Below the pieces are notes generated by a model. That model searched no databases, was not told the DNA's origin, and saw only the letters and a program-made list of their open reading frames with translations. Shown one piece after another: positions 17,601 to 62,558 of a stretch of DNA of 64,000 nucleotides. Within the stretch, counting starts at the first letter, position 1, and each line of letters starts with the position of its first letter. This DNA comes from a virus. A program made the translations under genes and the position numbers. Location of the stretch: IMG/VR virus record IMGVR_UViG_3300023202_000205, positions 32,001 through 96,000 of that record; one strand, given 5' to 3'.

Positions 17601-18793
17601 TCGTTGCCTTCCGCTTCCTGCGCTGCCTGCATGAGGGCGACATCCTGAGGATCCGTCGACATGGTATCAACCCCACCATAGGGCCACGCTTCCGCAGCTG
17701 CCGACGCCCCCCACACCCCTAAAGGTGCGGCAAGGCTGCGCCGGAAAAGACGACCTATGTCGGTACTCCCGCCACCACGGAGCGGATTACGCGTACCGTA
17801 CTGCTTAAGAGCACCCGCGAGTTGATGGGGGTCAGCTCCTGTAGCTCGCTCAAGACTGGTGAGCAGCCTCCCAGCGTCAGGACGCTGCCGCATCCTGCCC
17901 GTAGTACGTAGTTTCTGAGCAGCCTCCAACTGCTGTGCCAGTCTTTTTGGAGTAAGCGTCCGTTCAGAGAACGGTCTCATCTGAGTATCTCCAGAACGGG
18001 AACGGCCCCAGTCCTCCCCAGCAACACGGCTGACCAACCTATGCAAATCACTACCGGTAAGCTTAGCCCCGCGAGAAGCGGTTGACTCCAAGGCATCAGC
18101 AAGATTGGCTGCTCGCTGTGCAGTCACAGCAGGGTCTGGGTCCGCGAGAGCGTTCATCAACGCCCCCAAACGACGATCTGCGCGACCCCCCGTACCTGGT
18201 GCTGGTGCCTTTACGGTAGTGCCAAGCCCGCTTCTGGCATCAGTCACTTCTCCTAGCGAGCGAGCCCGTGCTGTCTCGGGCGACCGCTGCATAACCCGCA
18301 GGTCATCGATGACGCCACGCAGATTAGGGTTCTCAGCAGCATAGGGCAGCCACTTATTAAGTGCCTCAGCCGCACGTGGAGAAATTCGATGGAGCGCCTG
18401 CTGCCCAGCCCGACTACCGAGGAAGGTGTGCGCTGCTCCCGCAGCAACACCCGCTCCACCTTCTGCGCTCGCGACATCTTCTGCAAAATCGGCAAGAGGA
18501 GTGGTGCTCAGCTCATCCGACTCTACCGGCCGCTTACCGCCGACATCCATACCGGCGGCACGGGCCTTCCCCATCGCCCAATCCCGGATCTGGGGATAGA
18601 AGTAAGCACCCGTACCAAGCGCGCCAAGGCCGCCTAAGGTACCCAGTACCGCCCACATACGACGCCGCTTTCGACGCTCCTCATCCTCCTTCTGCTCGGG
18701 AGTGAGGTACTGTTCGTCCTCGACATCCTCAGCGAACTTCCGCATCTCATACGAATCTGTGAGGAGCTTGGCTGCGTCATCGGCAAACGTCAC
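17597..18793 (-). CDS. Putative ejected protein with glycine-zipper membrane segments
   Basis: KFAE motif near the N-terminus, then WAVLGTLGGLGALGTGAYFY; further GAGVAAGAA and LAAPLGVWGASAAA segments. Confidence 0.6.
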   Translation of the reverse strand: MTFADDAAKLLTDSYEMRKFAEDVEDEQYLTPEQKEDEERRKRRRMWAVLGTLGGLGALGTGAYFYPQIRDWAMGKARAAGMDVGGKRPVESDELSTTPLADFAEDVASAEGGAGVAAGAAHTFLGSRAGQQALHRISPRAAEALNKWLPYAAENPNLRGVIDDLRVMQRSPETARARSLGEVTDARSGLGTTVKAPAPGTGGRADRRLGALMNALADPDPAVTAQRAANLADALESTASRGAKLTGSDLHRLVSRVAGEDWGRSRSGDTQMRPFSERTLTPKRLAQQLEAAQKLRTTGRMRQRPDAGRLLTSLERATGADPHQLAGALKQYGTRNPLRGGGSTDIGRLFRRSLAAPLGVWGASAAAEAWPYGGVDTMSTDPQDVALMQAAQEAEGNE

Positions 18794-22358: not shown

Positions 22359-24619
22359 CCAGCCTCATCCATGATGGGGGCAGCCCCCATACCGAAGTGT
22401 TCCGGGTCCCCGGCAAGGCTTCGCTTCTTGGAAAAGACAATGATGTCGCCGAGCTGCTCGAACACCGCCTTGAGGTTATCGACGAACTCAGCGAGATCGT
22501 TCTCCCCATAGCGCTCCTCGAAATCCTCGTAATGCCAATAGATCAGAAATAGCATCCGACCAATGCGGTCCATACCAGAAGTGATCGTAGGCAGGAACTT
22601 GTCGACCAGGTCCGTGGGAGTGTGATTCTTGATCAAGCTACCCAGCGCCGATGCGTCGAACACATCCTTCTGCCCCGTCTCGCCTGCTGTCTCGATAGCA
22701 GAGAACGTATTTGGCTCGCCCTCTGCGTCTCCACCACCGGCCCCAAACGGGGAGTAATATTGATAGAACTCCCTATTCTGAGGGGAACGAGCCTGGTTCA
22801 CCGTCTGAAACGGCACTGCTTGTTGGTGGAAGCTGGTTAAGAAGCCCCCCAAGTCGGTATCCTCGACTTCCGGGAAAGTCAACATCTCAGCAGCTTCTTT
22901 GGTAGTCGGACGATACTTGTACAACGAGATCGTCGGGGACGCTTCCTTGATGACTGTACGCGCGTCTTCCTCACTCAATCCCAGGTCCCGCATCATAAAC
23001 CGAATACCGTCAGCCTCTTTGCGGAAGTTGGCAGAAGTACCAGCAGTCTTGACCGTCACTTCCGTACCAGACCGCCACGCCCGCAGGTCCTCGGCAACCT
23101 TATCGAGTGCTTGGCGGATCGTGTTGTAGTTGCCGAAGTCCGCGCAATCCAAGATAGCGTCGTAGCGAGGCTCCTGATATCGCTCCACCTCATAAGGGCT
23201 TAGATCCCCCGTCTCGTCTACCTCTCGCATACGGAACTGATTGATCTTCAGCGCCCAGAAACGCTTACTGTTCACAATCAGGTAGTCCTTGGTATAGCTC
23301 GGAGCAGCGTCACCGGTCTCAGCCACGATCACCGAGTCGACCCGACAATTCGGGTCTCGCGGACGGCTACCAAAGTTGGGGACACCTGAGGCAGCCCCGC
23401 CGTTACCACCAACCCAGAGGTCCTTAAAGAGGTTATGAGGCGGGTTTCCATTGTTCCCCCGGGCTAGCCCCTCAACAGGGGCGCCTGCAGTCATGCAGTG
23501 TCGGTCATGGATGCGCAGAGTGGTAATGCCATCAACGCCCTTGTTGTTCTCTTTGATGCAGAAGCCAGCAGTAGACTCGCCGCTCTCAGAGATGAAGACC
23601 ACTACATCTTGGGGGCGAACATCGGCCGGATTACCTGCGTTCTCACTGAGCCAGTCGACCAACTCCTGGCGGCTATACTTACGCAGACACCACACCTCCG
23701 TACGGTCGATCTCACAGTATTTGCTGTTCTCTGGGTCGTAAACGAAGACGCAGTTGGTCAGCGTGTTTGATGGCGTAACTACCGCCAAACGAACAGAGCC
23801 GTCCTTCCAGAGGACATCGTACAACCCGCCTTCGGTGGGGTTCTCCAGACATTCTTCGGTCTCAGTGCGGTAGAGACGTGACTTGGAGACTTCCGGTCGG
23901 TTGTCGATGACCACCGTCCCACCTTCCAGGACGTCCTGCTTTTGCTCGTCAGTTAGTTCCTTGGCGCCCTCGTCAGTGACCGAATTGATGATCACCACCG
24001 CCTCTTCCTGGGCTTGCTTCTGTTGAGGAGCCGCGTCGGCCAGGTCGAGGTAATTGTAGCCAAACCTCTCGAAGTGATCGCGCAAACGAGGGTTAGCATC
24101 CAAAGCTTGCTTGAAGTAACCAGCCGCACCAATCTTACTCAGCTCCTCGGTCAGGCTGATGGATTCGACCTCGTCTTCACGATCACCCATCATGGCCTCG
24201 GCCAGCTTGAGATTGACCGAACCGCCACCGCCGGGAATGACCTTCATGCGGGTATAGTTTGGCACGTGGATACCACGCTCGTTACGAGAACGGGTATCAG
24301 GATCCCCAAGTCGGACCTGCCGACGGTCAATGATCGAACTCACCCACCCGTCCGTGAGTGGGACGAACAGATCAGACTTGACCGAGTACAGGCTATCTAG
24401 ACCTCTGATCTCTCCGTTCATGAAGAAAACAGGGGCGTAGTAGTAATCCTCGTCGATCTCGAAACCGAAGATACCAACTGCCCGCTGCCCGTCGTCCTCC
24501 TGCTTGAGCATCTGAAACCCGACCAGATAGTCGAGCAGGCTCTGACTCTTGTCACGCAGGTGAGAGTAGGCCAGATCGGAAAAAGTCTTCTCCAGCGCGG
24601 TTTCATTGGTCTGTGGCAT
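22355..24619 (-). CDS. Large multidomain head-module protein
   Basis: 754-aa ORF with a folded N-domain (GFQML..EDDGQRAVGIFGF...YAPVFF..GEI) and KQAQ, KVAE, KTAG, KEAA between segments. Confidence 0.65.
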   Translation of the reverse strand: MPQTNETALEKTFSDLAYSHLRDKSQSLLDYLVGFQMLKQEDDGQRAVGIFGFEIDEDYYYAPVFFMNGEIRGLDSLYSVKSDLFVPLTDGWVSSIIDRRQVRLGDPDTRSRNERGIHVPNYTRMKVIPGGGGSVNLKLAEAMMGDREDEVESISLTEELSKIGAAGYFKQALDANPRLRDHFERFGYNYLDLADAAPQQKQAQEEAVVIINSVTDEGAKELTDEQKQDVLEGGTVVIDNRPEVSKSRLYRTETEECLENPTEGGLYDVLWKDGSVRLAVVTPSNTLTNCVFVYDPENSKYCEIDRTEVWCLRKYSRQELVDWLSENAGNPADVRPQDVVVFISESGESTAGFCIKENNKGVDGITTLRIHDRHCMTAGAPVEGLARGNNGNPPHNLFKDLWVGGNGGAASGVPNFGSRPRDPNCRVDSVIVAETGDAAPSYTKDYLIVNSKRFWALKINQFRMREVDETGDLSPYEVERYQEPRYDAILDCADFGNYNTIRQALDKVAEDLRAWRSGTEVTVKTAGTSANFRKEADGIRFMMRDLGLSEEDARTVIKEASPTISLYKYRPTTKEAAEMLTFPEVEDTDLGGFLTSFHQQAVPFQTVNQARSPQNREFYQYYSPFGAGGGDAEGEPNTFSAIETAGETGQKDVFDASALGSLIKNHTPTDLVDKFLPTITSGMDRIGRMLFLIYWHYEDFEERYGENDLAEFVDNLKAVFEQLGDIIVFSKKRSLAGDPEHFGMGAAPIMDEAG

Positions 24620-24680
24620 AGTTTCGTTCCATTACCTGAGTTGGAAAAGTCTACCTGGCCTGGGCTCGCGAGACAAGCGA

Positions 24681-26579
24681 TCAGCCTTCTTCGCCGTATT
24701 TACCGAGTTCCCCCAGCTGGGCTCCCAACCGCTCTGGTTGGCTAAAGGCTGGTACGAAGCTCGTGCTCTTGGTGTCTGACTCCGCCCCGCGATGGAGCGA
24801 CTTCTGAAACGCCCTGGCAGTGTAGAAGCCGGCCTGCCGTGTCTTCCAGTCAGGGTCGTTATAAACGCTGAGGACCCCCCGAACCATGTGTGGCTCGAAG
24901 TCAGGTTCATCATCGTGTGCGTACACACTGCGGATGTTGTACTTTTTCAGCTTATCGATGACCTTCGAGTTCACTCGAGTACCAGGTGTGTAGTGGAGTA
25001 CCGGCTCTTCCAGGTACTTGTCTTTAAGCTTGTTAACAGGTAGTTCCTGAGCGTTTCTACGCGGTTTGTACTTCGCCATGAGGCGTCCGTAGGGTACCAC
25101 ATCTCCGTAGATGTTGTCTTCGATACCATCGGGAGACGTTATCTGAGCCCAGTTCAGCAGCCCTGCAACCACCGACTCCACATTCCGACGGTGTGCTTTC
25201 ACACCCGAATTCTCCAGCGCCTCACGAAGATGTTGGGTGTAAATCCGCCTGGCCTCGCCCATACCCCGCAGCCTCACAAGATCGCCAGGGTGGGGTACGC
25301 CATCTGTCAGATCGTCTCCCTGCTCTACCTGGTCCCCTACTTTAACTGATACCTTCAAATCTGGGCCAGCGTAGTACTCCCTGTCCCCAACGGTGACGTA
25401 GTGACCACCTTGGGAAGCTTCCTTGATATCGTTGACCGCCCCCTCCTCTTCAACAAGAGGTCCGGATTCCGGAAAGTTCTGAGGTGCTTGGATCAATCGG
25501 TTGATGTACTCGAAACCACCACGAGTAGCTCTACCGCCTACCCCAGCAGTATGTTTGCTGGAAAGGGCCCCCTGGCTCAGCCGCTCTCCAATCGCCTGAG
25601 CTGCTGGAATACCGATGTTATCTCCCACCAAATGAAGCCCTCGACGAATACGTCGACCAGCGGCCTTGGCGCTAATACCCCCATCCTCGCTGATCTCCGT
25701 CAACGGACTATAGATGAGAATCTCATCACTCCCATCCTGTAGATCCTCAAGAATTTCGTCAGTCAAGATAGTACCGGCCGTATACTCCCCCGTGTCGTAA
25801 GCCAAGACGGCTCCGATGTTATCTTTATCTGACGGGTCCACCGGGAGCCCCGTTGGAAGACGGGACTGAACAGGTTCATCATGGGTGACCACCTGGCGAT
25901 GTGCTGCATTCACCAGTTGCTTGCTGAGATAACCGCTATCCGCCGTAGCGAGCTTGACGTCCAATTGGCCTTTTCGCTGTCCGTAAGAGGCTGCAAAGTA
26001 CTCAGCTGGGGTGAACCCTTCTGCGTAGCTATGGAGCAACGGCAGAGGAATGAAATCATCCTCCTGATCAGTCGCTAACAGATCAGCGCCTCGCAGACTG
26101 GCAAAAGACCCGGGATTCCCACGAGCTCCCGACTCAATTTGAACCGCAAACGGGGACCCCTCTTCCCGCGCCTCAGCCATGAGCGCCTCCTGCATGGGGC
26201 CACTGATTGGAAGCAGGGTCTCAACGATGGCGTTTTTACGCTCCTCATCAGTCAAGCTGTCGTCATCAATGATCGCTCGTACCTTTTTCCGAGCGGGCTC
26301 CAGGATCTCTTCCCGAGCCTTGGAACGGCGTAGCCCAGCGAGGTTCACCGAAAGACCTTCCGTCCAAACAGTCGTCTTACCGACCTCAGACAACTCCTGG
26401 AGGACCTCTTTGTACTGTTCCGGGTACTTATCGGCCAGCTCCATGAACAGCTTGTGAGTGCCCTTCTTATCGAGACGATGCTGCCCCTTACGCAACTCCT
26501 CGGGGAGCGCGTCATTGATCATGATCGTACCGATCGTGGTAATGCCTTTGCCGTCAGCCACTTGTCGACTGCTCCACAT
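24681..26579 (-). CDS. rpoC: RNA polymerase beta' subunit, C-terminal half
   Basis: ESGARG; bridge helix EGFTPAEYFAASYGQRKGQLDVKLATADSGYLSKQLV; trigger loop AAQAIGERLSQGALSSKHTAG; N-terminal TTIG motif. Confidence 0.93.
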   Translation of the reverse strand: MWSSRQVADGKGITTIGTIMINDALPEELRKGQHRLDKKGTHKLFMELADKYPEQYKEVLQELSEVGKTTVWTEGLSVNLAGLRRSKAREEILEPARKKVRAIIDDDSLTDEERKNAIVETLLPISGPMQEALMAEAREEGSPFAVQIESGARGNPGSFASLRGADLLATDQEDDFIPLPLLHSYAEGFTPAEYFAASYGQRKGQLDVKLATADSGYLSKQLVNAAHRQVVTHDEPVQSRLPTGLPVDPSDKDNIGAVLAYDTGEYTAGTILTDEILEDLQDGSDEILIYSPLTEISEDGGISAKAAGRRIRRGLHLVGDNIGIPAAQAIGERLSQGALSSKHTAGVGGRATRGGFEYINRLIQAPQNFPESGPLVEEEGAVNDIKEASQGGHYVTVGDREYYAGPDLKVSVKVGDQVEQGDDLTDGVPHPGDLVRLRGMGEARRIYTQHLREALENSGVKAHRRNVESVVAGLLNWAQITSPDGIEDNIYGDVVPYGRLMAKYKPRRNAQELPVNKLKDKYLEEPVLHYTPGTRVNSKVIDKLKKYNIRSVYAHDDEPDFEPHMVRGVLSVYNDPDWKTRQAGFYTARAFQKSLHRGAESDTKSTSFVPAFSQPERLGAQLGELGKYGEEG

Positions 26580-26769
26580 TGATTCGCTTTACCTTTAGCT
26601 GCTCACAGCTACTGACAAAGTCTCGGTGCTCTAGATCAGAGTGGATGAGAATCCCTGCGTGTTCGTAAGTCAGCGCCACAGGCTCCCCAGTATCCGCAAA
26701 TACGGTCACCTGCGATACCGGCATTCGGTACCGCTTACCGTTCTCGTGGACTACTTCGACGTAGAACAT
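26554..26769 (-). CDS. 71-aa protein overlapping the start of beta'-C
   Basis: SD GGAG, directly downstream of the 24-bp palindrome, overlapping the rpoC-C start. Confidence 0.6.
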   Translation of the reverse strand: MFYVEVVHENGKRYRMPVSQVTVFADTGEPVALTYEHAGILIHSDLEHRDFVSSCEQLKVKRINVEQSTSG

Positions 26770-26780
26770 GCATCAGCTCC

Positions 26781-26804
26781 AATAGTGTTCACGTGAACAC
26801 TATT
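26781..26804. promoter_or_regulatory. Palindromic junction motif (perfect 24 bp)
   Basis: aatagtgttcacgtgaacactatt overlaps the TAG at 26800 and ends 11 nt before ATG 26769. Confidence 0.75.
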
Positions 26805-28557
26805 TCTGCTCAGGTAGGGCAGGTCTCTTACCCCCACCAAACTGGGGAACCCCTGTGCCCAGCCGCCTGATAGGTTCACTTCCCACTGCCGGTTTGATAT
26901 CAGGCTTCTTGATGCGCTGTCGAGGCCTCAAGGTCCCACTATAGGTGACAGACGGATCAAGTGTCAGCGCACTGGCCACTAGATGTGGATTCTTCGCAAA
27001 AAGAGCCCCCATACGCCTTCCCCGGGACCCTCGTCCCAGATCGCTGAAATCGCCTGTGCTCATTGCCTGAGCTACTTCCTCACGGTTTCGGGCGATGAAG
27101 CGTTGGGCACTCCTCCCAAGATCGCCTCGTCGACGGAAACCATGGTGAACCTCCTGGGCCATCATAGCTGGGACCAACTGAGGATTGGTACTCGCCAAGT
27201 CACCCAACAAGCGGGCGCCACTACCCTCTATGCCCTCCAGCTCCCTCATCAAGCCACGGTCCTTCATGGCCCGCTCTCCCAAGCGCTGAATAGCAGTGGT
27301 GTCCCCACGCTCCTTGGCGCTCTCGAGCCGGCGGCGGTAGCGACTGTCGAATCGAACAGCCTTATCCAGGGCCTCTGCCCACGGTTGCTTCTGTAACTGG
27401 GCATAGGACTGCGCAGCTGGCTCAAGCAGCTTCTCAGCATCGGCTCCGAGCTGAGTACGGAGAACACCTGACTGACCTACCAGCTGCATAGCGGTCATTG
27501 GGTCAATGCCTTGCTGGTCAGCGATGTCGGCCGCCTTGGCCATTTGACGCGCGTCGATCATGCCACGCCGGGCAAGATCTCCCAGGTAGTTAGCTGACTG
27601 GATCAATTGTGAAGGATCCTCAGCGTAGCCCTGTCCGAGGCGGCTAGCCAACGACATCGCTCCACCAAAGGTCTGAGCAAGGCCCTGCTTGTGAAGTGCA
27701 TCAGCCGATTTGGCGATGTTGGCGGCATGCGCCATGTTCGCCCGATTACCCAGCCGCTCTCTGGCAAAGCCCATCGCGCTTGCCGCTAGCTGAGCAGGGA
27801 TCGGACGCCCCTCTTGGTTGAACCACCCTTGGTTATACGCTTGGCGAAAGTTTTGAATGTTCTGAGCGAAAAGACCCTCGTCGAAACGGCCTTCATTTTG
27901 GGCCATCGTCATCTTCACAAACGGGGAAAAATCGGCAATGAAGTTAGGGTCCATCGCGCTCAGAGTAGACGCAAGCTCGGGCACCGCAGGAGCTAACTGC
28001 CCATACATCATCCCTAGCTGCTGGGGCGGCATACTCTTGACCCAGCTAGTGGCCGCTTCGCCACTCAGCCCACCGAGCCAGTCCTGCCGGATATTCTTGG
28101 GGATCTTGTTGATCCACTCCCCCGCCATGTCCGCAATCCGACCGACGAGACGGCCACTCTCCTGGAACTGTCTGCCCATCATCTCACGATTAACACGAGC
28201 TGCTTCGCGGGTCGCCGCTGGATCGCCGCCGTACCCGACCTGGATAGGCTCCATCAGATCAAGGCCGGTTTTCTCCTTCACCCACGGAGCTACGAAGGGA
28301 AGCAATAGCGCTGGCGCCGTTCCCATCTCCCCCATCACGTTCTGCAAAAGGCTGATACCTATGCCAGCAGGACTGGTTGTATTGCCTTCCCGCCCTGCAA
28401 ACCCAGGTACTTGCTGACTCTCATATTGAGCGTGCTGAGCTCGACGTTGATTGACGTCAGGAAAAAATCCCCTGAAGCCACCCGGAGGCGGACCACCTGG
28501 TCTACCTGGTTGCTGCACCTGGGCGAACTTAGTAAGAGCTTTCTTACCTAACGTCAT
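26800..28557 (-). CDS. Putative ejected protein (G/Q/M-rich, helical)
   Basis: 585 aa; N-terminal KKALTKFAQ; hydrophobic segment GIGISLLQ...ALLLPFVAPW. Confidence 0.6.
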   Translation of the reverse strand: MTLGKKALTKFAQVQQPGRPGGPPPGGFRGFFPDVNQRRAQHAQYESQQVPGFAGREGNTTSPAGIGISLLQNVMGEMGTAPALLLPFVAPWVKEKTGLDLMEPIQVGYGGDPAATREAARVNREMMGRQFQESGRLVGRIADMAGEWINKIPKNIRQDWLGGLSGEAATSWVKSMPPQQLGMMYGQLAPAVPELASTLSAMDPNFIADFSPFVKMTMAQNEGRFDEGLFAQNIQNFRQAYNQGWFNQEGRPIPAQLAASAMGFARERLGNRANMAHAANIAKSADALHKQGLAQTFGGAMSLASRLGQGYAEDPSQLIQSANYLGDLARRGMIDARQMAKAADIADQQGIDPMTAMQLVGQSGVLRTQLGADAEKLLEPAAQSYAQLQKQPWAEALDKAVRFDSRYRRRLESAKERGDTTAIQRLGERAMKDRGLMRELEGIEGSGARLLGDLASTNPQLVPAMMAQEVHHGFRRRGDLGRSAQRFIARNREEVAQAMSTGDFSDLGRGSRGRRMGALFAKNPHLVASALTLDPSVTYSGTLRPRQRIKKPDIKPAVGSEPIRRLGTGVPQFGGGKRPALPEQK

Positions 28558-28576
28558 AACTGTGTTATCGCCTCAG

Positions 28577-29455
28577 TTAGGGTTTGTTCTTCTGAACAGT
28601 TTGTCTCGAGACACCCTTAGTAGTCCCACCAGTAACCTTGCGTCCACTCACCATGTTCTTCTGCCGTTCCTCGGCCTGCTCCCTGGCTTTACGACGGTTA
28701 CGTTCTGAGCGGTCCGTATGTCCCAGGCCCGACAAACGGCGGTTCCTCAAAGCCAAGTCGCTGGCCATCTGAGCGGCGCTCTGACTCTGTGCCAGCTTTG
28801 CTTTAACAGCCTCCCCAAGCTTGAGAGGGCCCCCCACCATATCCGGGCTGAACCCAGGCTGGCCAGTCACAGGCCCTGGTTGAGCTTCCGGAGGGGGCGG
28901 TTCTGCTTGTTCAGCAGCCTTCCCATCTCCCTCAGCAGCCTCTTGAGGCTTGGCCTTCCCAACCATCTCCAGCGCTTGTCTGACGATATCCATCGTGTTC
29001 TGCTGGATACCCTTCAAGGCTTCGACGTCTCCACCGGAAATAGAGGTGTCGCCCTCACCGCCCTCTTCCATGCCTTCCTCACCAGGAAGCGGGGGGAGTT
29101 CTTCTCCCCCAGGAAGTGGGGGAAGACCGGCCATAGGGTCTCCGCCACCGGCCGCCATAGGATCCAAAGGAGGAGCCCCACCGCCAGCAGCTGGATCCAT
29201 GGGCGGGGGAGGCATTCCACCACCCCCGGGAGGTGGTGCCCCGCCCATCATCGCAGGATCCATGGGAGCTCCGCCCATCATCGCCGGATCCATGGGAGCT
29301 CCGCCCCCACCCCCGCCGGGCGCGACAGGCATACCACCTGGCCCAGCGGCCTGCTGTCCTTGCTTGGCAGTCATCGGCACAAACGCCTGTTTCTGACGGT
29401 ATTCTTCCAACCGCTCTTGAAGCGCTCTTTTGAAGAATCGTGCGTGATTGGTCAT
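28577..29455 (-). CDS. G/P/M-rich low-complexity internal protein
   Basis: KQAF followed by GGAPMDPAMM repeats; KLAQ before a basic C-terminal segment. Confidence 0.6.
   Translation of the reverse strand: MTNHARFFKRALQERLEEYRQKQAFVPMTAKQGQQAAGPGGMPVAPGGGGGGAPMDPAMMGGAPMDPAMMGGAPPPGGGGMPPPPMDPAAGGGAPPLDPMAAGGGDPMAGLPPLPGGEELPPLPGEEGMEEGGEGDTSISGGDVEALKGIQQNTMDIVRQALEMVGKAKPQEAAEGDGKAAEQAEPPPPEAQPGPVTGQPGFSPDMVGGPLKLGEAVKAKLAQSQSAAQMASDLALRNRRLSGLGHTDRSERNRRKAREQAEERQKNMVSGRKVTGGTTKGVSRQTVQKNKP
29241..29306 (+). repeat. 30-bp tandem repeat (2.2 copies) encoding GGAPMDPAMM
   Basis: ccgcccatcatcgc(a/c)ggatccatgggagct twice, plus a partial third copy. Confidence 0.9.
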
Positions 29456-29496
29456 CGTTCCATCCTAACCAGTGTTGTAGTGTTGCCTGAGAGCCG

Positions 29497-29916
29497 TTAT
29501 TTTCGTCGGGAAAGAAGATAGGCCAGGATACCGCCTGCGCCTGAGCCACCCAAAGCCCCAAGCCCAGATACACCCAAATCACCCGCGAGGATTCCTGGGG
29601 CTGCACCCAAGGCACCCCCTAAACCGACTCCGGCGCCCGTGGCTCCCCCGGTAAGGGCTGACCGAAGGATAGCGTCACCACGATCCTCGTCCTCGTCCTT
29701 CTCGCGGAGAGCACCCACGAGCCCCCCAATGCCGGTTCCTATGATGCCGGGCAAAACAGGGGACAGAGCCATTCCCGTAGGGTTGAGCTTACCAGGACTC
29801 TTGAGGCGTATGGTAGGCTCATATGACGAAGGATCGAGATCCTCCCTCGAGATGTCGTACCCCGGGTGTGTGGCACCTAGTTTAGAGAGTCTGTGATACA
29901 TGTCCGTCGGGCTCAT
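29497..29916 (-). CDS. Small glycine-zipper membrane protein
   Basis: PGIIGTGIGGLVGAL and ALTGGATGAGVGLGGALGAAPGILAG...GGILAYLL. Confidence 0.7.
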   Translation of the reverse strand: MSPTDMYHRLSKLGATHPGYDISREDLDPSSYEPTIRLKSPGKLNPTGMALSPVLPGIIGTGIGGLVGALREKDEDEDRGDAILRSALTGGATGAGVGLGGALGAAPGILAGDLGVSGLGALGGSGAGGILAYLLSRRK

Positions 29917-32900
29917 TGTTCTAGAATCCTTATAGGGGTTCTGGCATTGATCTTTCCGCGAGCAAATGCTCTACGGGCCTCTTCCTCCGTAGCGAAGACC
30001 TGTACAGGTTCCTCCTTATCGGGGGTGCTGGCAAGATACAATCCAGCCAGGTAGTCCTGCATCGGCTCCAGGTGGGTCTCGAAGGTACCTGTGAAAAACA
30101 GGTTCTTGGAGGGCATCAGCTTCGTTTTAGCGTCTTGAATGGCCTCGGAGGAGGCTGGTACGTGGATATTGATCTGGTCACCATCGTAGTCACCACCGAT
30201 ACCCTTGAGAGTATGGTAAGGCATGCCAATGGCGTCGTCATCCCGCAGCTTGCCCCACGCGCCCACATAGGCATAGCGATGAAGCGCGGGCGCGCGGTTA
30301 TAGACCACGGGCCTTTCCTTCATCTCTTCTTCCAAAGCCTTTTGAGCAACTGGCTTACGTTCTTTAACTGCCTTCAGGGCGTCCGTCGCCTCCATCCCCA
30401 ACCGTCGTAACCGACGGATAACGTAGGGTTTGAAAATCGTGAAAGCCATATCCTTGGGGACACCCACCTCATCCATGTCGAGTGACTTATCGGCTGTGAT
30501 AACCCCACGTCCCACAGAATCGACAGCGGTCCCGATGACCTTACGCTGGTAAAAAGCACCCTTGGGACTCTGGCCGACACCGATAGCGTGTCGCAGAACG
30601 CCTTTCACACCCTGCTCCGCAGACTTCTGGCTGACCGGATCCCTTGTACCCGAGATAGCCCCCACCGCTTGCATCATCGTCAGATACTCGTCACCAGCCT
30701 CCCCGAATTGCTCCTTCGCACCCTTGTAGTTTTCCCGGGATTCGAGCAACTCGTGATACAAGTAGTTCAGGTCGTGAACCACATCGATACCACGAGCACT
30801 TGTGATCGGCCGATACTTCGGGGGAACAACTGGGACCTTCGTGACCATTAGCTGTTCTGGGCTGAGCTCCATATTCTTAAGCCCAGCCAGGTAGTTCAGG
30901 CGCTTGACCGCCTGGTCTCGCTTCGTCTTCCGCCCAGAGCGTATGGTCTCCTTGGCAAGTCCCATTTCCCGATCGATATTGATCGACTTCAATGCAGTCT
31001 GCACTGCCTGAGGGCCGGTTTCCCCATTGAGCTCTTCCTTGCCGGCTAGAACAGAGTCGAGCTTCTTACCCGTCACACCAAGCAACTTCTGGATGGGATC
31101 CAGGAATAGTGGGTGCGGTATCGGGGCGGGGAGCGTGATCTTGGCAAAACGAGACCCCTCTGCACCTCCTGTAGCTTTGATATCGAAGAGCCCACCCGGT
31201 ACAGGTTTCATTGTTTCGAAATTGAACGTACCAGGATTCTCAACCTCATGATCTGCCAAGGTATCCACTTGGTCGTCCGTCAGAGGTGTTAGTTGAGAAC
31301 GTGTGCCTTTCTCCCGGACATTAACCCCGGCTCCGCGAAGCAGATCCTTGAAGCGCTGGTTGGCAAAGCTCTCTGAGGGAGCTATCGGTTCCTCACCCGC
31401 GCGAATGGCTCGCCAGTAGTCATCATTGCGCTGCCCACGGACTAGTTTGGCGTCACGTAAGAAGTTGGTAGCCCCCGCCGCAAGCAGCGCGTGAGCATCA
31501 AGCATGCTAATCCGCTTACTACCTTCTTTGCCACCCTTGGCCGGGATGCCCTCAGTCGTATACGTACCAACATCTCGAGCGCCAAGTTTGCTTTCAGCCA
31601 TGTGATGGAGCTTCATGAAGTAGCTCTCGCCAGTAAACACATTCGGGATCTTGGATCCATCCCTCGGGTCCGTAAGCGTCTCGGTATCGCGAATCTTCCC
31701 GGTTACCGGGTCCTGCTCGATAACGCCATACTTGAGCGCCTCTTGAAGAGCGAACTCCGTCACGTCTTCCGTGTCAAAACCCTTCACCGCGTAAGGTTTG
31801 CCGCGCTTACGGGCAGCTTTGCCCAGTAGCGACTCGGCTAAGGCGCCCGGATTGGTACGACTAACGATACCCAGGGCGTTGGCGATTACCTCAATGGGGC
31901 GCCCCTCTGAGTCGAGTGGCATTTGATCATCCGGCCGGATCTCCGAGATAACGCCTTTGTTGCCAAAACGACCTGACAGCTTATCTGCACCACGCATGGC
32001 GTCATACGACTTCACGGTAACCTTGATTCCCTTGGGTGTACGATTTACGTCCGTCACCACCCCAGGGGCGTGGTGGTCCCACCGCTGGGCATGGTCGGTC
32101 GTAGTCGATCGAGGGCTGCTCATCAGCGCGCCAACAGCCTTCTTGCCCTTCTTACCAAACCCCAGAATAATCGGATCCCCTGGCTGCAACTCAGCCCCTA
32201 CCTTTATGACACCGTCATCCCCGATCTTTTTGTACTGATCGGCATCAAACTTGTCACTGTAGATCGCCTGATACGACTTCTTATCTGTCGAGTCCACATC
32301 AGAAAGGTCCAAGTCGCTCTTGTAGAGGGCCTCGCTAGTCAACTTCTTAGCAGCACTTTCGCTGATGACGAAAGCGTCTTCAATGGTATCCCCCTCAGCA
32401 GCCATGAAAGCTACCCGCAAGTTGCGGCCAATAGCTGCAGTACCCTTGTCGTCAGTGAAGTTCGACTTGGCAAGCAACTGACCAGGCGTGACAAAGTCGC
32501 CCTTCTTCACCAATGGGGTGTTATGGATCATCGTTTTACGCGCTGACGGGTAATTGTTGTACAGGTCGACAACCTTGTTTTTACCATCAGCTGTACGGAT
32601 CTTGACCTCATCAGGGGTCACGGCGATTACCGTACCCTGCACAGGCGTATAGGCCGCACCCACATAACGCCCCATGGCCTCATGGGTATTCTCTCCGCCA
32701 GGTCCCTTGGTCTGTACTAGAGGTGCCTCCGGCTCTCGCAGTGGCATTGCCTGCTGCGTCATTCGAGCCCCCATCAACAGACGCTGGCCCTTGATGGACT
32801 GCGGGAAAGGAATCATCGCCGTAGCCCGAGACATCATATTCCCAGGGTCTGGGATGGCGTAGTCCACCTCCTCTTTGGGGACATACTGGATTTTGTCGTC

Positions 32901-34379
32901 CTTGATGGCTGGGACCCGTTTGGCGTCCTTTTCCATCTCACCAGGGAATGAGATCACTTTGGTAGAAAGTGTTCGCGCGGACACAACTTCTTCTTCGCCC
33001 GTCTTGATATTCCTTACCGGGGTGTATAGCTGGTTATCGCTCCCCTTCAGGGCTGCATCTGTCGCTCGAAGATCCAAGCCCAACTTGCTGGACTCCGGAC
33101 CTCGGACAGGGTCGATAACGCCAATGTAGCTCGCCTGTACTCCACGAGCACCTCGGCTGACAGCCTGCTCGCTTGAGATGCCACCCTCCCCCATGCGTGT
33201 AATGGCTTGTCGCTGATCATGCACTTCGAACGGGTTGATGTCCTCAACGGAAAGCGCAAGGCCTGAGCCCTCGAAAAGGGATCCAATGTTCTTATCCATA
33301 ACGCCAGTAGGGATCTTCATCTTACCTTGCCTAGCTGACCGCCAGAGCAACTTACGTAGCGTGCCCGCAGGATCTCGCTGCAAACGCTCCCGGATGTAAT
33401 CCTCAGCACCATGGATCGACTGGAAGGCAGGAGAGTCCCGGTTGTCGCTCTTCTCCTCGTTCCTGGCTACGCGGATCACTTTACCCGTGGCGTCCAACAA
33501 CGTGCCGGTTGATAACTGGTCGATCGCCTTGCCAAGTGTCAACTCGGTAGTCTCAGGGTCTACCTGGGCTTTATCTAGAATATCACGGAAAGCTTCGGGA
33601 AGCAGGTCTTCGTCGACGTCGGTCTTCTGCGACCCCAACTTTCCCACCACCTTCTTGAGATCCTTGATGTCGTTGGCCGAAGGCGCTCGGTAGTTCTTGT
33701 TGTAAAGCTCCTCTCCCCAGCGCTTCTTGATGTCCTCATCCGAAACGCCTAGCTGACGAAGAAGTGGATAGAGCCTCGTCGTCGACTGACCGATCTGCAT
33801 CTTGAAAAGACCGGTCTTCGGTTCGAGCAAGATACGGAAGGCTCGCCCGGTACCGGGCTTGATGTTGAAGTGACTCTCAGTGCCCCCATCTGCGCGGGGA
33901 CGAGTGTAGACCCCCGGTCGAAGGCGTGCCTGGTTCCGCAAAGACCAGACCACCCCTTTACGAATGAAGACACCACGGCTATTCAAATGTGGGATGCGAG
34001 CCAACGTAACACGCTGCTCGTCAATTGGGGTCTCGGTAGCCTTGTCTACAAGACGTACCGTACCTCTCAGTGGACGATGCAGGGAAGTTCCCTGCATGAT
34101 CATCTCTTTCTCGTCACGCTTAGCTGGCGTGAAAGGTCCCTCGTAGCCAACATCCGTCACTTCCAGACGGTGTGTCGCATTTTCAACAGGTTTCATTCCC
34201 TGCAAGGCTTCGACGGCAGAGTTATAGATGTCCTCCCGTTGGGTATCCGAGTCATCAAAACGCCGCAACCGAACTGGGCGCGGAGCAGCCACAGGGCTCT
34301 GACTGGCTAGATTACCTGGCTGTACCGGATCCAGTGGAGCTGGAGGGTTTATAGGATCCAGCGGAGAAGCTAGAGCCAT
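29913..34379 (-). CDS. rpoB: RNA polymerase beta subunit fused to the N-terminal half of beta'
   Basis: Beta motifs IPHL..RGVF, GEGGIS...R.V..SYIG.IDPV..PE...GL, QRLLMGARM.QQAMPL, DKLSGRFGNKGVIS and YFMKLHH. Then beta' motifs GGLFD, VDSVGRGVI, NRAPALHR and catalytic GGDYDGDQINIHVP (30177-30191). Confidence 0.95.
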   Translation of the reverse strand: MALASPLDPINPPAPLDPVQPGNLASQSPVAAPRPVRLRRFDDSDTQREDIYNSAVEALQGMKPVENATHRLEVTDVGYEGPFTPAKRDEKEMIMQGTSLHRPLRGTVRLVDKATETPIDEQRVTLARIPHLNSRGVFIRKGVVWSLRNQARLRPGVYTRPRADGGTESHFNIKPGTGRAFRILLEPKTGLFKMQIGQSTTRLYPLLRQLGVSDEDIKKRWGEELYNKNYRAPSANDIKDLKKVVGKLGSQKTDVDEDLLPEAFRDILDKAQVDPETTELTLGKAIDQLSTGTLLDATGKVIRVARNEEKSDNRDSPAFQSIHGAEDYIRERLQRDPAGTLRKLLWRSARQGKMKIPTGVMDKNIGSLFEGSGLALSVEDINPFEVHDQRQAITRMGEGGISSEQAVSRGARGVQASYIGVIDPVRGPESSKLGLDLRATDAALKGSDNQLYTPVRNIKTGEEEVVSARTLSTKVISFPGEMEKDAKRVPAIKDDKIQYVPKEEVDYAIPDPGNMMSRATAMIPFPQSIKGQRLLMGARMTQQAMPLREPEAPLVQTKGPGGENTHEAMGRYVGAAYTPVQGTVIAVTPDEVKIRTADGKNKVVDLYNNYPSARKTMIHNTPLVKKGDFVTPGQLLAKSNFTDDKGTAAIGRNLRVAFMAAEGDTIEDAFVISESAAKKLTSEALYKSDLDLSDVDSTDKKSYQAIYSDKFDADQYKKIGDDGVIKVGAELQPGDPIILGFGKKGKKAVGALMSSPRSTTTDHAQRWDHHAPGVVTDVNRTPKGIKVTVKSYDAMRGADKLSGRFGNKGVISEIRPDDQMPLDSEGRPIEVIANALGIVSRTNPGALAESLLGKAARKRGKPYAVKGFDTEDVTEFALQEALKYGVIEQDPVTGKIRDTETLTDPRDGSKIPNVFTGESYFMKLHHMAESKLGARDVGTYTTEGIPAKGGKEGSKRISMLDAHALLAAGATNFLRDAKLVRGQRNDDYWRAIRAGEEPIAPSESFANQRFKDLLRGAGVNVREKGTRSQLTPLTDDQVDTLADHEVENPGTFNFETMKPVPGGLFDIKATGGAEGSRFAKITLPAPIPHPLFLDPIQKLLGVTGKKLDSVLAGKEELNGETGPQAVQTALKSINIDREMGLAKETIRSGRKTKRDQAVKRLNYLAGLKNMELSPEQLMVTKVPVVPPKYRPITSARGIDVVHDLNYLYHELLESRENYKGAKEQFGEAGDEYLTMMQAVGAISGTRDPVSQKSAEQGVKGVLRHAIGVGQSPKGAFYQRKVIGTAVDSVGRGVITADKSLDMDEVGVPKDMAFTIFKPYVIRRLRRLGMEATDALKAVKERKPVAQKALEEEMKERPVVYNRAPALHRYAYVGAWGKLRDDDAIGMPYHTLKGIGGDYDGDQINIHVPASSEAIQDAKTKLMPSKNLFFTGTFETHLEPMQDYLAGLYLASTPDKEEPVQVFATEEEARRAFARGKINARTPIRILEQ

Positions 34380-34384
34380 GGCCG

Positions 34385-35341
34385 TTAAAACCAGTTAGGG
34401 GCTGGTTGACGAGAAGCCGTATTGTCCTTCGCCTGCTGCGCAGGGCTACCTGGTTGGTCGACCACTTGTACAGGCACCGGCATAGCCACCGGAGCAGCTG
34501 GGGCCTCTGGCACCGGAACTGCTTGCCTAGCCTCCTCTTCCTCCTCGTCCTCTTCCCGAAGAGCCTCACGAAGGACAGGTACCATAGACAGTTGAGGAGT
34601 AGTAGCTTTCCTGCTGGAAAGGTACTGCTTGATCCGCTGGGCCTTGGTAGCCGAAGGGCTACTACGACGGGCCTGCTGATACCCCGACAAAGCTCCAAAG
34701 GTCAGACCACCACCTACCAGAGACGCCAGGATCCAAGGGAGATCAGACAACCCGACGGCCGCCTGCTTCTGCTGGCCAGCTGGCTGACTGAAGTAAGCGT
34801 CCTCGGCGGCCTTCATCGTGCCGTAGACTTTTTCGTCTTCATCTCGTGGGCGGTCGTTGAGCAGTCCACTAATGCGCTCACGAACCCTGTTGATGTCACT
34901 ACTTGCAGCCTGCTGCCGCATCTTGTCAACCAACAGGTCGGTGAGATACCACCCAAGAAGGCCTCCCCCAGTAGCCGCTGCGCCAAGACCAAGTCCGCCG
35001 AGCATAGTCGGGGACGTCTGGTGCACCGGTACCGCCGCAGGCGTTTTGGCAGCGGCTGCCTTAGAAAGCAACTTACGGACTTTCATTCCCCGCCTACGCA
35101 GCTGTTCCGCCTCCTCCGGGGTCACCTCTACAGGGATCTCCGTAACAGTCGACTTGGGCCGTTTAATCCTGGCAGCCCCCTCAGTCGGCTCATCCCGCGA
35201 CAAGTCGAACAGGTTACGAATAAGACGAGCACCACCGCCAAGTGCCGCCCCTCCCAGCAAGGCTGTAGGGAGACTCCCCCACATGTAACCGGGGTCTGTC
35301 GTGTCAGCCATGTGAGGCTTTTTAAGGACCAGGTCCGACAT
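34385..35341 (-). CDS. Putative ejected protein with three glycine-zipper segments
   Basis: ALLGGAALGGGA, LGGLGLGAAATGGGLLGW and ILASLVGGGLTFGAL, separated by KAAA, KAAE and KQAA. Confidence 0.65.
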   Translation of the reverse strand: MSDLVLKKPHMADTTDPGYMWGSLPTALLGGAALGGGARLIRNLFDLSRDEPTEGAARIKRPKSTVTEIPVEVTPEEAEQLRRRGMKVRKLLSKAAAAKTPAAVPVHQTSPTMLGGLGLGAAATGGGLLGWYLTDLLVDKMRQQAASSDINRVRERISGLLNDRPRDEDEKVYGTMKAAEDAYFSQPAGQQKQAAVGLSDLPWILASLVGGGLTFGALSGYQQARRSSPSATKAQRIKQYLSSRKATTPQLSMVPVLREALREEDEEEEEARQAVPVPEAPAAPVAMPVPVQVVDQPGSPAQQAKDNTASRQPAPNWF

Positions 35342-35346
35342 GAGCG

Positions 35347-35706
35347 CTACCTCTTCTCAGAGGGTACTTTATACTTCCTGTCCGCCCAGCGCAACAGAGC
35401 CACAAACTTGCCTGAAGATTCCTGAAACTCCGTACGGTGCTCACAAAGCACTGCGTGACCGTCCGCAATTTGCTGCCAGATACGCTCGTACTTCTCGAGA
35501 TCTCCGCCCTCACCAGAGTCTGAAAGGTCGAAAACCCGCACGCGGGCAACCCAGTGCTCCTGGATCTGCTTTTCCGAAGGGGTTTGCTTGTCAACCAGCG
35601 GTAGCTCGTCGACCCCAGCAGGCACTTCAACCAGTGGAGGTGGTTGGTAGCGGCTAGTGGGTATCCCCTTGGGGAGCTTCAAAGATTGTGCCATGCCGTT
35701 ATGCAT
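35347..35706 (-). CDS. Hypothetical protein
   Basis: 119-aa ORF in operon context. Confidence 0.6.
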   Translation of the reverse strand: MHNGMAQSLKLPKGIPTSRYQPPPLVEVPAGVDELPLVDKQTPSEKQIQEHWVARVRVFDLSDSGEGGDLEKYERIWQQIADGHAVLCEHRTEFQESSGKFVALLRWADRKYKVPSEKR

Positions 35707-35721
35707 GTGGGAAGACTAACT

Positions 35722-36435
35722 CTAGCGCTTACGCTTAGCAAGAACCTTGCGCAGCTGGACATTGCGGTTGTCAGCCCTCAACCGATCAAGCTGCTCCTCC
35801 AGAAGCATCCGCTTGACCTTGAGCCGAGTGAGCTCCTCATCACCTTCATCCGGGGCATCCGCGAAGCCAGCCATCGTACCAGCTGTCTGACCCATCCCTG
35901 TCAAAGCCTTCGCTGCTGAGCGGGGCAGCGAAAGCAGGTCCGCCGGATTGAGAGCCAGTACGGGCACAAAGGCGTCCTTCTCCAGCTTCCCCCGGTCTTC
36001 CAAAAGCCCAAGATCCCTGGCCGCCTTGAGAAAGCCTAGACGGAAAGCGTGCTTTCGCTGTTCGGCCACCTTAGGAAGCAGCCGTTCCCTGCGCTCGAGA
36101 TCTGCTTTCTCCTGGTCTTCCGCCCACTTGATGGCGCCTGTATTCATCGCTGCACCCGCTCCCATAGCTGCTGTCTCCAGCTTATCCGCAAAACTGCTGG
36201 GTAATCCGAAAGCCTTGCTCGCCCCACGAGCTACCCCGGCACCCAGCCCAGCCCCGAAAACACCGTGAATTACGTCCTTGAAAGTCCACCTTCGAGGCTT
36301 TGGTTTTTCTTGTGAAGCCAGGTCGTCCCACCTCATCAGCTCGCGAGACTTGTCGGCAAGGTTGCCTGGTCCAGAAACGATATCGTCTCGGGACTCCATG
36401 GCGTCGTAATAGCGAGCAGCGTCCGCGTAAGTCAT
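35722..36435 (-). CDS. Glycine-zipper protein with AF.LGF.K.ARDLGL motif
   Basis: GVFGAGLGAGVA, AAMGAGAA, KWAE, KHAF and KDAF. Confidence 0.65.
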   Translation of the reverse strand: MTYADAARYYDAMESRDDIVSGPGNLADKSRELMRWDDLASQEKPKPRRWTFKDVIHGVFGAGLGAGVARGASKAFGLPSSFADKLETAAMGAGAAMNTGAIKWAEDQEKADLERRERLLPKVAEQRKHAFRLGFLKAARDLGLLEDRGKLEKDAFVPVLALNPADLLSLPRSAAKALTGMGQTAGTMAGFADAPDEGDEELTRLKVKRMLLEEQLDRLRADNRNVQLRKVLAKRKR

Positions 36436-37715
36436 CCTCTACCACCTGGAACAAGGAAACGGTCAGTCGCCCCTACGGAACGGCGGGCCATATCCTTTGC
36501 CTGTTGCCAGGCGCTTTCAGCAGCATTCTGCGGCTGAGCGGCCTGTTGTGGCTGTTGTGCCTGTTGACCAGGTCCAAAAAGCGAGGAAGTCAGATTCGCA
36601 GGGGCTTGCGCCATGGACTTTCTGATCTGATCCATGAAACCATGCCCTGCCAGGAATGTGTAATCATGGAGCGTCGAGCGAAGGGCTGGGGCAAGATCCT
36701 CGTCCCCACGGCGCTCAGCGATCTGTTCAGCCGCTGCTTCGAGGTCTGAGAACGGAGCAGGGTTACCCTGCTCATCAGTCTGGTTGGCGGCTGTCTGGAT
36801 AGCTTCCAAGGTAGGGGCGTGGTATTTGTTCTTTGGGTTCGTCAACCGGTTATATCGCTCGTAGAGGTTATAGCCGCCTGCTCCCACCGCCAACGCTCCA
36901 AGTACCTTGCCGATATTACCGCCAAAGGTCATGGCGATAAGTCCAGCTGGGATCAGCGCCGTCTGCCAGTTCTCTTTGATCCAATCCGTAAACCCAGTAG
37001 CGTTCGGATTTTCCACCACACCTTCGACGGTCTTCCGCTCAATATCCTTAGCAACCTCGCTAGTACCCTCTCCAACACCTTTCCTGGCTTCCTCGATTAC
37101 GTCAACGCCAGCCAGATCCAACGCCTTCAGCGTAGCCGGATCGGCGATCGACTGACGTACCTTGGTATTATAGCTTTCCCACTGCTCAGGGGACCACGCG
37201 CTCGTCAGCGGGTCCATCGTCTCCGGTAGCCGCGATAGAGCTTGCTGAGCCTGTTGCTGATAGGGACCTCCCCGTGACATACGGAGCAGCTGCGCCTGCC
37301 GAGCAGCTAGATCGTCGAGCGCGCGAGGGGATTGCTGAAAATACGACTGCATGGCCTCTTGGGCAATCTGTTCATCAGTCGCCCCTTCCCCCAACTGCCG
37401 GGCGTAGTGCTTTTTCAGCTCCTGGTTCTGAAGAAGCCTATCTCGAAGACCACCATAGCCCGTCAAGAAGGTCCCTGGGGCAGTCGTGTACTCAGAGACC
37501 GCTCCGGACACCACTTGTGATGGGTCAAACTCTGGTGTCTCTGAAGCTGCCGAAGGAGTAGCTACAGGAGCAGGGGCTGCCTCAGTACTTGATGACATCG
37601 TGTTCTTAGGCGTCGGGGTAGCCGGCGCCGCTACAGCAAGGGGGTCTGCTATTTGAGCCTGTTTACGCAGCGCTCCGTGAACCTGCTCAAGAATGTGCTG
37701 CAGAGTCTTATCCAC
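36432..37715 (-). CDS. Putative ejected membrane protein
   Basis: LRKQAQ near the N-terminus; helical hairpin ALIPAGLIAMTFGG...VLGALAVGAGGY. Confidence 0.65.
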   Translation of the reverse strand: MDKTLQHILEQVHGALRKQAQIADPLAVAAPATPTPKNTMSSSTEAAPAPVATPSAASETPEFDPSQVVSGAVSEYTTAPGTFLTGYGGLRDRLLQNQELKKHYARQLGEGATDEQIAQEAMQSYFQQSPRALDDLAARQAQLLRMSRGGPYQQQAQQALSRLPETMDPLTSAWSPEQWESYNTKVRQSIADPATLKALDLAGVDVIEEARKGVGEGTSEVAKDIERKTVEGVVENPNATGFTDWIKENWQTALIPAGLIAMTFGGNIGKVLGALAVGAGGYNLYERYNRLTNPKNKYHAPTLEAIQTAANQTDEQGNPAPFSDLEAAAEQIAERRGDEDLAPALRSTLHDYTFLAGHGFMDQIRKSMAQAPANLTSSLFGPGQQAQQPQQAAQPQNAAESAWQQAKDMARRSVGATDRFLVPGGRG

Positions 37716-59632: not shown

Positions 59633-60127
59633 TCAGAAAAAGTACAGTCGTACCATCTGTGATTCAAGTGCCCTTACCGCAAGACCCATGTACCTCGCCC
59701 CCTGCCTACGCTGGGTCTCCATGAACTGCTCATAGGCCTCTGGGGTGTCTGGTATATCGAAACTCTTACCAACCAAGGAGTTGGGCTTAGCCGGCACTGG
59801 CATGGGTGGGCGAGCCGTACTAACCGCCCTATTGGCTGTCGGATCAACTGACCAGTCCTCGTCTGGGTTGATCTGCCTCAGTAGCTTGCCGACCTTGGCC
59901 GGCTCCTCTGAAAGGACGTCCAGCATTGAGTGCCGACAGCTACCACAGCCCGGCTTATCCCGGAACTTGTTCAACGTCTCCCCATGCTGAGGCCAGAGCT
60001 TCACGAACTCACGACCAATCCTGCGCTCCTCATCCGACTGATTGTTTACGTCGGGGGTGCGAAGAAAGTCGAGTACCGTATTGAGATTAACCCGTTTACC
60101 CACGTTACTCCTTACACGGATTTCCAA
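59633..60127 (-). CDS. Hypothetical protein with a CxxC motif
   Basis: KPGCGSCRHSM; 164 aa. Confidence 0.55.
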   Translation of the reverse strand: MEIRVRSNVGKRVNLNTVLDFLRTPDVNNQSDEERRIGREFVKLWPQHGETLNKFRDKPGCGSCRHSMLDVLSEEPAKVGKLLRQINPDEDWSVDPTANRAVSTARPPMPVPAKPNSLVGKSFDIPDTPEAYEQFMETQRRQGARYMGLAVRALESQMVRLYFF

Positions 60128-62522: not shown

Positions 62523-62536
62523 GAGTCCCCACACAC

Positions 62537-62558
62537 ATAGTGTTCGCGCGAACACTAT
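62537..62558. promoter_or_regulatory. Palindromic junction motif (perfect 22 bp)
   Basis: atagtgttcgcgcgaacactat ends 14 nt before ATG 62522. Confidence 0.75.

Follow-up and report, generated by a model that had tools for sequence, protein, structure and literature searches.

The window analysed here is a 64,000-nucleotide (nt) stretch, bases 32001-96000 of the 179,364-base-pair (bp) IMG/VR record IMGVR_UViG_3300023202_000205, an uncultured phage that CheckV rates ~96% complete. It encodes a multisubunit RNA polymerase (RNAP) in which a whole β subunit is fused to the N-terminal part of β′, and the rest of β′ is a separate gene (Table 1). Every convincing gene in the region of interest lies on the minus strand. 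Plus-strand open reading frames (ORFs) at 34406-35425 and 16335-17648 were discarded as shadows of minus-strand genes, on the basis of GC content by codon position and a protease family hit. No near-identical DNA was found in the phage collection. Positions in β and β′ are numbered as in Escherichia coli or Salmonella.

Architecture of the two polymerase chains

A first-pass annotation, made from the letters of this DNA without database searches, described a chain of 1488 amino acids (aa) running from β into β′. Pfam, PDB searches and alignment all agree with that description, and show a complete β joined to β′ up to about residue 553. The chain (P0001) carries the Pfam domains Rpb2_6 (residues 582-941, E 9e-50), Rpb1_1 (1145-1223) and Rpb1_2 (1346-1419). 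In PDB chain searches, residues 55-1056 match almost an entire cyanobacterial β and residues 1107-1487 match E. coli β′ 166-554. A finer search with residues 1000-1488 aligns positions 1030-1071 to E. coli β′ 22-63 and rules out a loss of the first 165 β′ residues; the chain picks up β′ near its N terminus, at about E. coli residue 17-22, and what it lacks is limited to the zinc ribbon (E. coli 64-95) and a short insert. MAFFT alignment with Salmonella RpoB and RpoC places the C terminus of β at P0001 residue 1026 (~nt 31302), within the interval of 31290-31330 first proposed for the junction, and β′ begins there with no linker between the two. An AF2 model of residues 860-1488 (pLDDT 77.7) has the cyanobacterial γ/RpoC1 chain 9dvs_D as its top PDB match.

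The remainder of β′ had also been assigned to a gene of its own, and the ORF in question (P0002) indeed has the TTIG motif, bridge helix, trigger loop (with His936) and the clamp's C-terminal part. Its residues 13-482 match Mycobacterium tuberculosis β′ 665-1169 (PDB phmmer). The AF2 model of this chain (pLDDT 82.2, pTM 0.70) gives a whole-length Foldseek match to Thermus thermophilus β′ (TMq ~0.62).

As far as can be judged from its residues, the enzyme should be intact. Both hallmarks of a two-barrel core are present, namely the β-barrel lysines K1065 and K1073 and the β′ DxDGD triad, all of them unvarying in 46 relatives. β also retains E813, D814, R678 and R1106, and β′ retains R425, T790 of the bridge helix and H936 of the trigger loop, with substitutions at M932 (Leu) and R933 (Ser) of that loop. 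The Mg loop at P0001 1395-1401 does read GGDYDGD instead of NADFDGD, as the first reading had it, with Gly in place of β′ Asn458. Its three aspartates (D1397, D1399 and D1401, equivalent to β′ D460/462/464) do not vary in 46 relatives. The residues leading into the triad are NAD in ~35 of 120 relatives, GAD in 24, GGD in 21 and others in fewer, and by this count GGDYDGD is a subclade state rather than a mark of the family. The rifampicin pocket is heavily substituted (Q513L, D516E, H526Q, R529A, S531T, L533M, I572D and R687Q), and by what is established on rpoB resistance positions this predicts an enzyme insensitive to rifampicin.

The cut in β′ falls at Salmonella residue 553; the seven split members that were aligned share this column without exception, and it lies within a loop that is of variable length in bacteria too. 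It was first described as lying near the point where β′ is divided in cyanobacteria. This is close but not exact: in cyanobacterial and plastid rpoC1/rpoC2, β′ is likewise cut after the catalytic barrel, but β is separate, and cyanobacterial γ ends ~50-65 residues downstream of the present cut (alignment offsets: γ 551 = P0001 1479, and γ ends at 624).

Between the two chain genes lie four ORFs (139, 292, 585 and 71 aa), the number originally counted. In split relatives the gap spans 0.64-8.4 kilobases (kb). A family of repeat proteins (~180-340 aa), of which the 292-aa protein is the window member, fills it in 33 split loci, although the clustering may be partly repeat-driven and homology over the whole set is uncertain. 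The repeat protein is nearly the sole content of the ~1-kb gaps. It is of low complexity and probably disordered, with short helices flanking the repeats, and may act as a partner of the RNAP or as an adaptor for packaging. Neither Pfam nor PHROGs assigned a family to the four ORFs of the gap, to the five genes from portal to fusion or to most of the downstream genes. An ESM Atlas search with the 585-aa protein and a 1046-aa protein beside the portal returned just unnamed viral clusters and weak tape-measure-like leads. The two ORFs flanking the fusion gene, at 34385-35341 (318 aa) and 29497-29916 (139 aa), each have a Gly-rich, hydrophobic, membrane-like segment, and the fusion gene starts 5 nt past the stop of the 318-aa ORF.

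Table 1. Features of the polymerase locus and its surroundings (window positions unless stated).
Feature	Position	Strand	Basis or remark
β::β′-N fusion gene, 1488 aa (P0001)	29913-34379	-	Pfam, PDB phmmer, MAFFT, AF2
β part, residues 1 to ~1026	~31302-34379	-	
β′ part (E. coli ~17-553), residues ~1027-1488	29916-31301	-	
7-residue Gly-rich loop TGGAEGS in place of the β′ zinc ribbon (E. coli C70/C72/C85/C88)	31149-31169	-	
Mg loop GGDYDGD (canonical NADFDGD), P0001 1395-1401	30177-30197	-	
139-aa ORF	29497-29916	-	start overlaps fusion stop; Gly-rich hydrophobic segment; no Cys
292-aa disordered protein	28577-29455	-	PMDPxxMGGAP-type repeats
585-aa Cys-free protein	26800-28557	-	common only to closest relatives
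71-aa ORF	26554-26769	-	overlaps β′-C start; common only to closest relatives
β′-C gene, 632 aa (P0002)	24681-26579	-	Pfam Rpb1_5, PDB phmmer, AF2
Cys-poor block, eleven co-oriented genes	24681-40848	-	RNAP chains, four gap ORFs, five portal-to-fusion genes
Portal	40858-42747	-	homolog of Arash gp204, E 2e-52
Head maturation protease	16302-17600	-	phrog_18299, E 2.7e-11
Sigma-70-family gene, 283 aa	genome 19338-20189, 12 kb before the window	-	Sigma70_r3, r4_2

Distribution, origin and relation to known polymerases

Among 50,697 phage records, full-length tblastn matches (96% coverage, ~30% identity) occur only in phages Arash, D69, D181 and D148. In the protein database, over 120 clusters (41-74% identity) show the identical Pfam architecture, on contigs of up to 220 kb. 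In IMG/VR, a scan with a 46-sequence alignment confirmed the fusion in at least 553 stretches; a single-protein query alone had returned no related loci. We fetched 80 related loci for a comparison of gene order. A β′-C match is found in 65 of them, always downstream and on the same strand, and the portal lies upstream of the fusion gene in 45. Because hundreds of stretches and four isolate phages (Arash, D69, D148 and D181) share this architecture, the fusion-plus-split is confirmed by sequence comparison not to be an assembly artefact. Related contigs were binned with metagenome-assembled genomes (MAGs) of many phyla, Planctomycetota recurring among them, although such binning is no evidence of host.

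Thirteen distant loci (29-33% identity) encode β::β′ as one unsplit ORF of 1992-2207 aa, and a fourteenth has an ORF of 2570 aa. To place the two forms, a tree was built from 41 intein-free family members and the RpoB and RpoC of Salmonella, Acinetobacter, Staphylococcus and Enterococcus (2054 columns; IQ-TREE quick search, LG+G4), with these four bacteria from two phyla as the root. The tree recovers the family as monophyletic (support 100) and the split forms, 28 in all, as one clade (SH-aLRT 99) nested among the single-chain forms, with Arash and D69 as its first branches; the single-chain forms are basal and paraphyletic. On this rooting, which is moderately supported, the split would be a single derived event that came after the fusion; the grouping of the split forms does not depend on the root. 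The first-pass annotation took the combination of fusion and split as possibly specific to one lineage; the fusion by itself is not confined to the split lineage, and the basal single-chain relatives have it as well.

Salmonella phage Arash (OQ632216; PMC10585845) and the Vibrio phages D69, D148 and D181 have the same fusion, split column and portal-linked gene order and a homologous sigma factor, with genomes of 180-187 kb and chains that align over 96% of their length. In Arash, gp206 (1525 aa) and gp216 (606 aa) make up the pair, and the portal gene lies two genes upstream. What fills the gap differs from the window: Arash has nine genes there, and D69, with 641 bp between its two chain genes, has two small ORFs. 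In the Arash paper the chains are named β and β′, and neither their fusion and split nor the lack of α is taken up (PMC10585845). The single-chain relatives (for example IMGVR_UViG_3300033485_000001 and 3300027896_000001) are 29-32% identical to the window chains and share the junction, the zinc-ribbon deletion, a sigma homolog and an adjacent portal, but have one unsplit ORF of ~2,000-2,200 aa.

Several published systems resemble this polymerase in part. The RNAPs of phiKZ and AR9 are also two-barrel enzymes without α or ω, with β′ cut after the barrel and one version packaged for early transcription (PMC7598289; PMC7824862). Their β, however, comes in two or three pieces and is never fused to β′, they form two sets, and they have no recognisable sigma-70 homolog (PMC7598289), whereas the window has an intact, fused β, one set and a sigma factor. 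The first-pass annotation had mentioned a lineage of Caudovirales known from metagenomes. This lineage, mReC (Weinheimer & Aylward 2020, PMC7481178), also consists of uncultured tailed phages with an RNAP alignable to bacterial β and β′, but the architecture is a different one: the contigs listed there carry separate β (~890-1390 aa) and β′ (~1000-1490 aa) genes, and the screen admitted β and β′ hits of 800 aa or longer that carried NADxDGD (PMC7481178). Going by that listing, membership of the window in mReC is excluded, its genes being fused and split and its motif GGDYDGD. The rpoB-rpoC genes of Helicobacter and Wolbachia are likewise end-to-end β-β′ fusions, with an unbroken β′ such as the basal relatives have and the window, with its cut β′, has not. 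Cellular β-β′ fusions keep the whole of β′, α, ω and both zinc sites.

Neither reviews of phage multisubunit RNAPs up to 2026 nor full-text literature searches yielded a description of the fusion-plus-split layout. We regard the polymerase as a genuine, intact variant of the phage multisubunit RNAP that is widespread yet undescribed; its architecture and history are well supported, and the present analysis adds the origin of the split, the pattern of zinc-site and cysteine loss, and the sigma factor outside the window.

In many homologs, inteins, LAGLIDADG elements or homing endonucleases break up the fusion gene (P0013, P0021, P0023, P0067, P0073 and P0081-P0107; D181 and D148). In one subclade, SET-domain (PF00856) or GNAT acetyltransferase (PF00583) inserts lie within the polymerase chain.

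Zinc sites, cysteines and the sigma factor

The window's polymerase has neither of the two zinc sites of the bacterial core. In all 13 family members examined, aligned with Salmonella and Staphylococcus, the four cysteine columns of the first site (Zn-I) are gaps. The ligands of the second (Zn-II; C814, C888, C895 and C898) are P/I/S/A in the window and are also replaced in L014 and L017. They are retained in L023, L060 and six single-chain forms, and, unlike in the window, in Arash and D69 at the base of the split clade. In several of these retaining relatives the Zn-II cysteines are the sole cysteines in ~2,050 residues. The alignment thus shows Zn-I deleted across the family and Zn-II lost only in the window's subclade.

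The loss extends to cysteine in general. P0001, P0002 and the sigma factor have none, against ~19, 8 and 4 expected at the proteome rate of 1.3%, and 11 of the 28 intein-free split pairs are wholly Cys-free; most single-chain forms keep Zn-II, and three are Cys-free. The Cys-poor block around the chain genes (Table 1) has two cysteines in ~5,350 residues, both in small ORFs, where ~70 are expected; the adjoining portal has six. At the opposite extreme, an 816-aa protein at 60105-62555 has 34 cysteines against ~11 expected.

The genome holds one β barrel and thus a single RNAP gene set. The absence of α, ω and sigma from the window, stated at the outset, was borne out. Searches of the whole 96%-complete genome gave no match at E<=1 for α (PF01000, PF01193) or ω (PF01192), although very divergent analogues could escape them; in all 14 genomes searched with positive controls, these gave hits. 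PF01000 is likewise lacking in three complete relatives and in Arash and D69. Outside the window, the rest of the genome gave no α match either, and does contain a sigma-70-family gene. Its Pfam matches lie above the cut-offs (Sigma70_r3, E 2.4e-10; r4_2, E 1.5e-6), and residues 94-272 match M. tuberculosis SigA 322-510 (regions 2-4). The protein is homologous to Arash gp10 (E 3e-16) and has homologs in all three complete relatives, two of them single-chain. The gene adjoins a weak baseplate-J-like match, in the baseplate module.

Since the sigma factor is conserved across the family and is found in the Arash virion preparation, the core probably pairs with it and is sigma-dependent. The α-independent RNAP proposed in the first pass is in keeping with the lack of α and ω from this genome and its relatives, with the amendment that a sigma exists, so that the enzyme would probably need one. 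Taken together, sigma dependence and α independence are likely. Two further r4-like matches, at 10150-10929 and 63166-63759, were rejected as a second sigma and are multi-HTH (helix-turn-helix) proteins. The first of these (259 aa) combines three HTH motifs with an Endonuclease VII domain at its C terminus and is likely a free-standing homing endonuclease. Pattern scans for sigma-70 promoters and terminators gave hits at chance level.

Proposed packaging and role in early transcription

The RNAP genes sit between the portal and prohead protease genes, in a conserved order of portal, RNAP fusion, β′-C, structural protein and protease. In virion mass spectrometry of Arash, both chains rank among the most abundant proteins: Gp206 gave 3516 spectra, the most of all, and Gp216 gave 1210, against 467 for the sigma Gp10, 877 for the portal and 1333 for the major capsid protein (PMC10585845). 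By the rough measure of spectra per residue, these are 2.3 for Gp206, 2.0 for Gp216, 2.0 for Gp10, 1.5 for the portal and 4.3 for the major capsid protein. The counts would fit an equimolar complex whose abundance equals or exceeds that of the portal. Arash gp217 (L001 23097-24515), encoded right after β′-C, is a Cys-free helicase with 2.4 virion spectra per residue, a value like those of the RNAP chains.

From the Arash proteomics and the conserved gene position, delivery of the polymerase in the virion appears plausible and fairly probable. Our preferred reading, held with moderate confidence, is of a two-chain, sigma-using polymerase that arose by one split of a single-chain ancestor and is packaged for early transcription. 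Chain 1 supplies all of β and β′ ~17-553, with both double-psi β-barrels and the Mg loop, and chain 2 adds the bridge helix and trigger loop as well as C-terminal elements of the clamp. The ancestor would have been a single-chain β::β′ in which one cut after the β′ barrel produced two genes, and the gap would afterwards have gained variable cargo, including the conserved disordered repeat protein. The covalent β-β′ link probably stands in for the α-dimer assembly platform. The holoenzyme would probably be made late, packed in the head and delivered with the DNA, and would then transcribe early phage genes without the host polymerase and unaffected by its inhibitors. For the wider proposal, that a clade of ~130-235-kb tailed phages injects a capsid-borne holoenzyme (a core of one or two chains plus sigma-70) which has no α, ω or zinc ribbon and almost no cysteine and is present in at least as many copies as the portal, we see the chances as evenly balanced.

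Several observations weigh against this reading. The proteomic evidence for packaging comes from a relative whose chains are only 26-30% identical to those of the window. The Arash preparation, purified on a sucrose gradient only, contained 116 of 272 proteins, ribonucleotide reductase and primase among them, and its authors allow for carry-over of abundant non-structural proteins; the spectra were searched against phage proteins alone, so that host α or ω could be missed (PMC10585845). The genes around the RNAP had been taken to encode injected proteins. That assignment found no support: no family was detected for them in Pfam, PHROGs or ESM Atlas; the lack of cysteine is their sole tie to the polymerase, and it links them to the enzyme and does not give their identity. 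A search for over-represented 7- and 8-mers in 65 upstream regions found mostly one long repeat and no promoter consensus. Finally, the tree comes from a quick LG+G4 search with a root of four bacteria, and the supports of its basal nodes, at 91-92, are not strong.

The polymerase may instead be unpackaged, expressed by host RNAP after infection for a middle or late role, with its presence in the Arash preparation due to carry-over. The many clearly non-structural enzymes in that mass spectrometry and the authors' own caution fit this alternative, as does the single RNAP set, where phiKZ-type phages have a virion and a non-virion pair (PMC7598289). We nonetheless regard it as unlikely. Carry-over would have to yield near-equal length-normalised spectra for both chains and gp10, above that of the portal, and the family-wide placement of the RNAP genes in the head module, by the portal, also speaks against it. 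The sigma detected in the virion is encoded amid baseplate genes, and the second Arash sigma (gp196, L001 2492-3529, with 3 Cys), which sets Arash apart from the window genome, is missing from the virion table, hinting at one virion sigma and one later sigma. Family-wide loss of cysteines and zinc sites would, in addition, be hard to explain in a purely cytoplasmic enzyme. One possible reason is adaptation, either to being stored in the particle or to crossing the tail and envelope; if the enzyme is packaged, a holoenzyme with more than 2,100 core residues must pass the tail, and the loss may be what enables this.

A second alternative accepts the chains as a partial core that recruits host α2, ω or sigma and is not α-independent. 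No phage α or ω was found in the genome or its relatives, and host subunits would have been invisible to the phage-only Arash search, so the proposal has some footing; we consider it improbable. The phiKZ and AR9 polymerases function without α or ω (PMC7598289), and the phage carries a conserved sigma of its own. Relatives in MAG bins of many phyla would demand a fit to very different host α subunits. To our knowledge, cellular multisubunit RNAPs all need an α-type platform. The covalent β-β′ link would remove the main need for it, and the tethering of β to β′ in E. coli bears on this need for α.

Least probable by a wide margin is an unreal split, either an assembly or frameshift artefact or ORFs that an intron, recoding or a split intein would join up again: inteins and homing endonucleases are frequent in the relatives' chain genes, but the split column recurs in dozens of independent contigs and three isolate genomes, the gaps contain conserved genes, and five gap genes of Arash are on the opposite strand. 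An Rfam search of 24000-36000 matched no intron or other RNA family, and the ends of both chains are tight and lack extensions of intein size, on which grounds rejoining by an intron or split intein was rejected. Because of these results and the opposite-strand genes in Arash, the two chains are, on the available sequences, best taken as separate proteins.

If packaging of the two-chain polymerase holds, it would be the first sigma-70-dependent virion RNAP and the smallest natural α-less bacterial-type RNAP, and the clade would record a natural fusion followed by a split. A lineage with single-chain and re-cut versions is a natural experiment on RNAP assembly, and a recognisable sigma-70 opens bacterial-style promoter recognition by a minimal core to study. 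With cultured members infecting Salmonella (Arash) and Vibrio (D69, D148 and D181), ordinary phage and biochemical methods suffice. The genes are at present annotated merely as 'beta subunit' or 'hypothetical'.

Other large proteins are encoded nearby. Adjoining the portal, at 37708-40848, lies the gene for the 1046-aa protein, which is helical, charged and Cys-free; a homolog was undetected even where the RNAP is 50-70% identical, and relatives have a gene-sized space at its position. The portal's gene array also encodes, ~1.8 kb further upstream at 44530-47538, a protein of 1002 aa that has a NUDIX domain (E 2.5e-10) at its centre. Two adjacent genes at 5628-7562 and 7534-9318 encode TPR-plus-GT41 (O-GlcNAc-transferase-like) glycosyltransferases.

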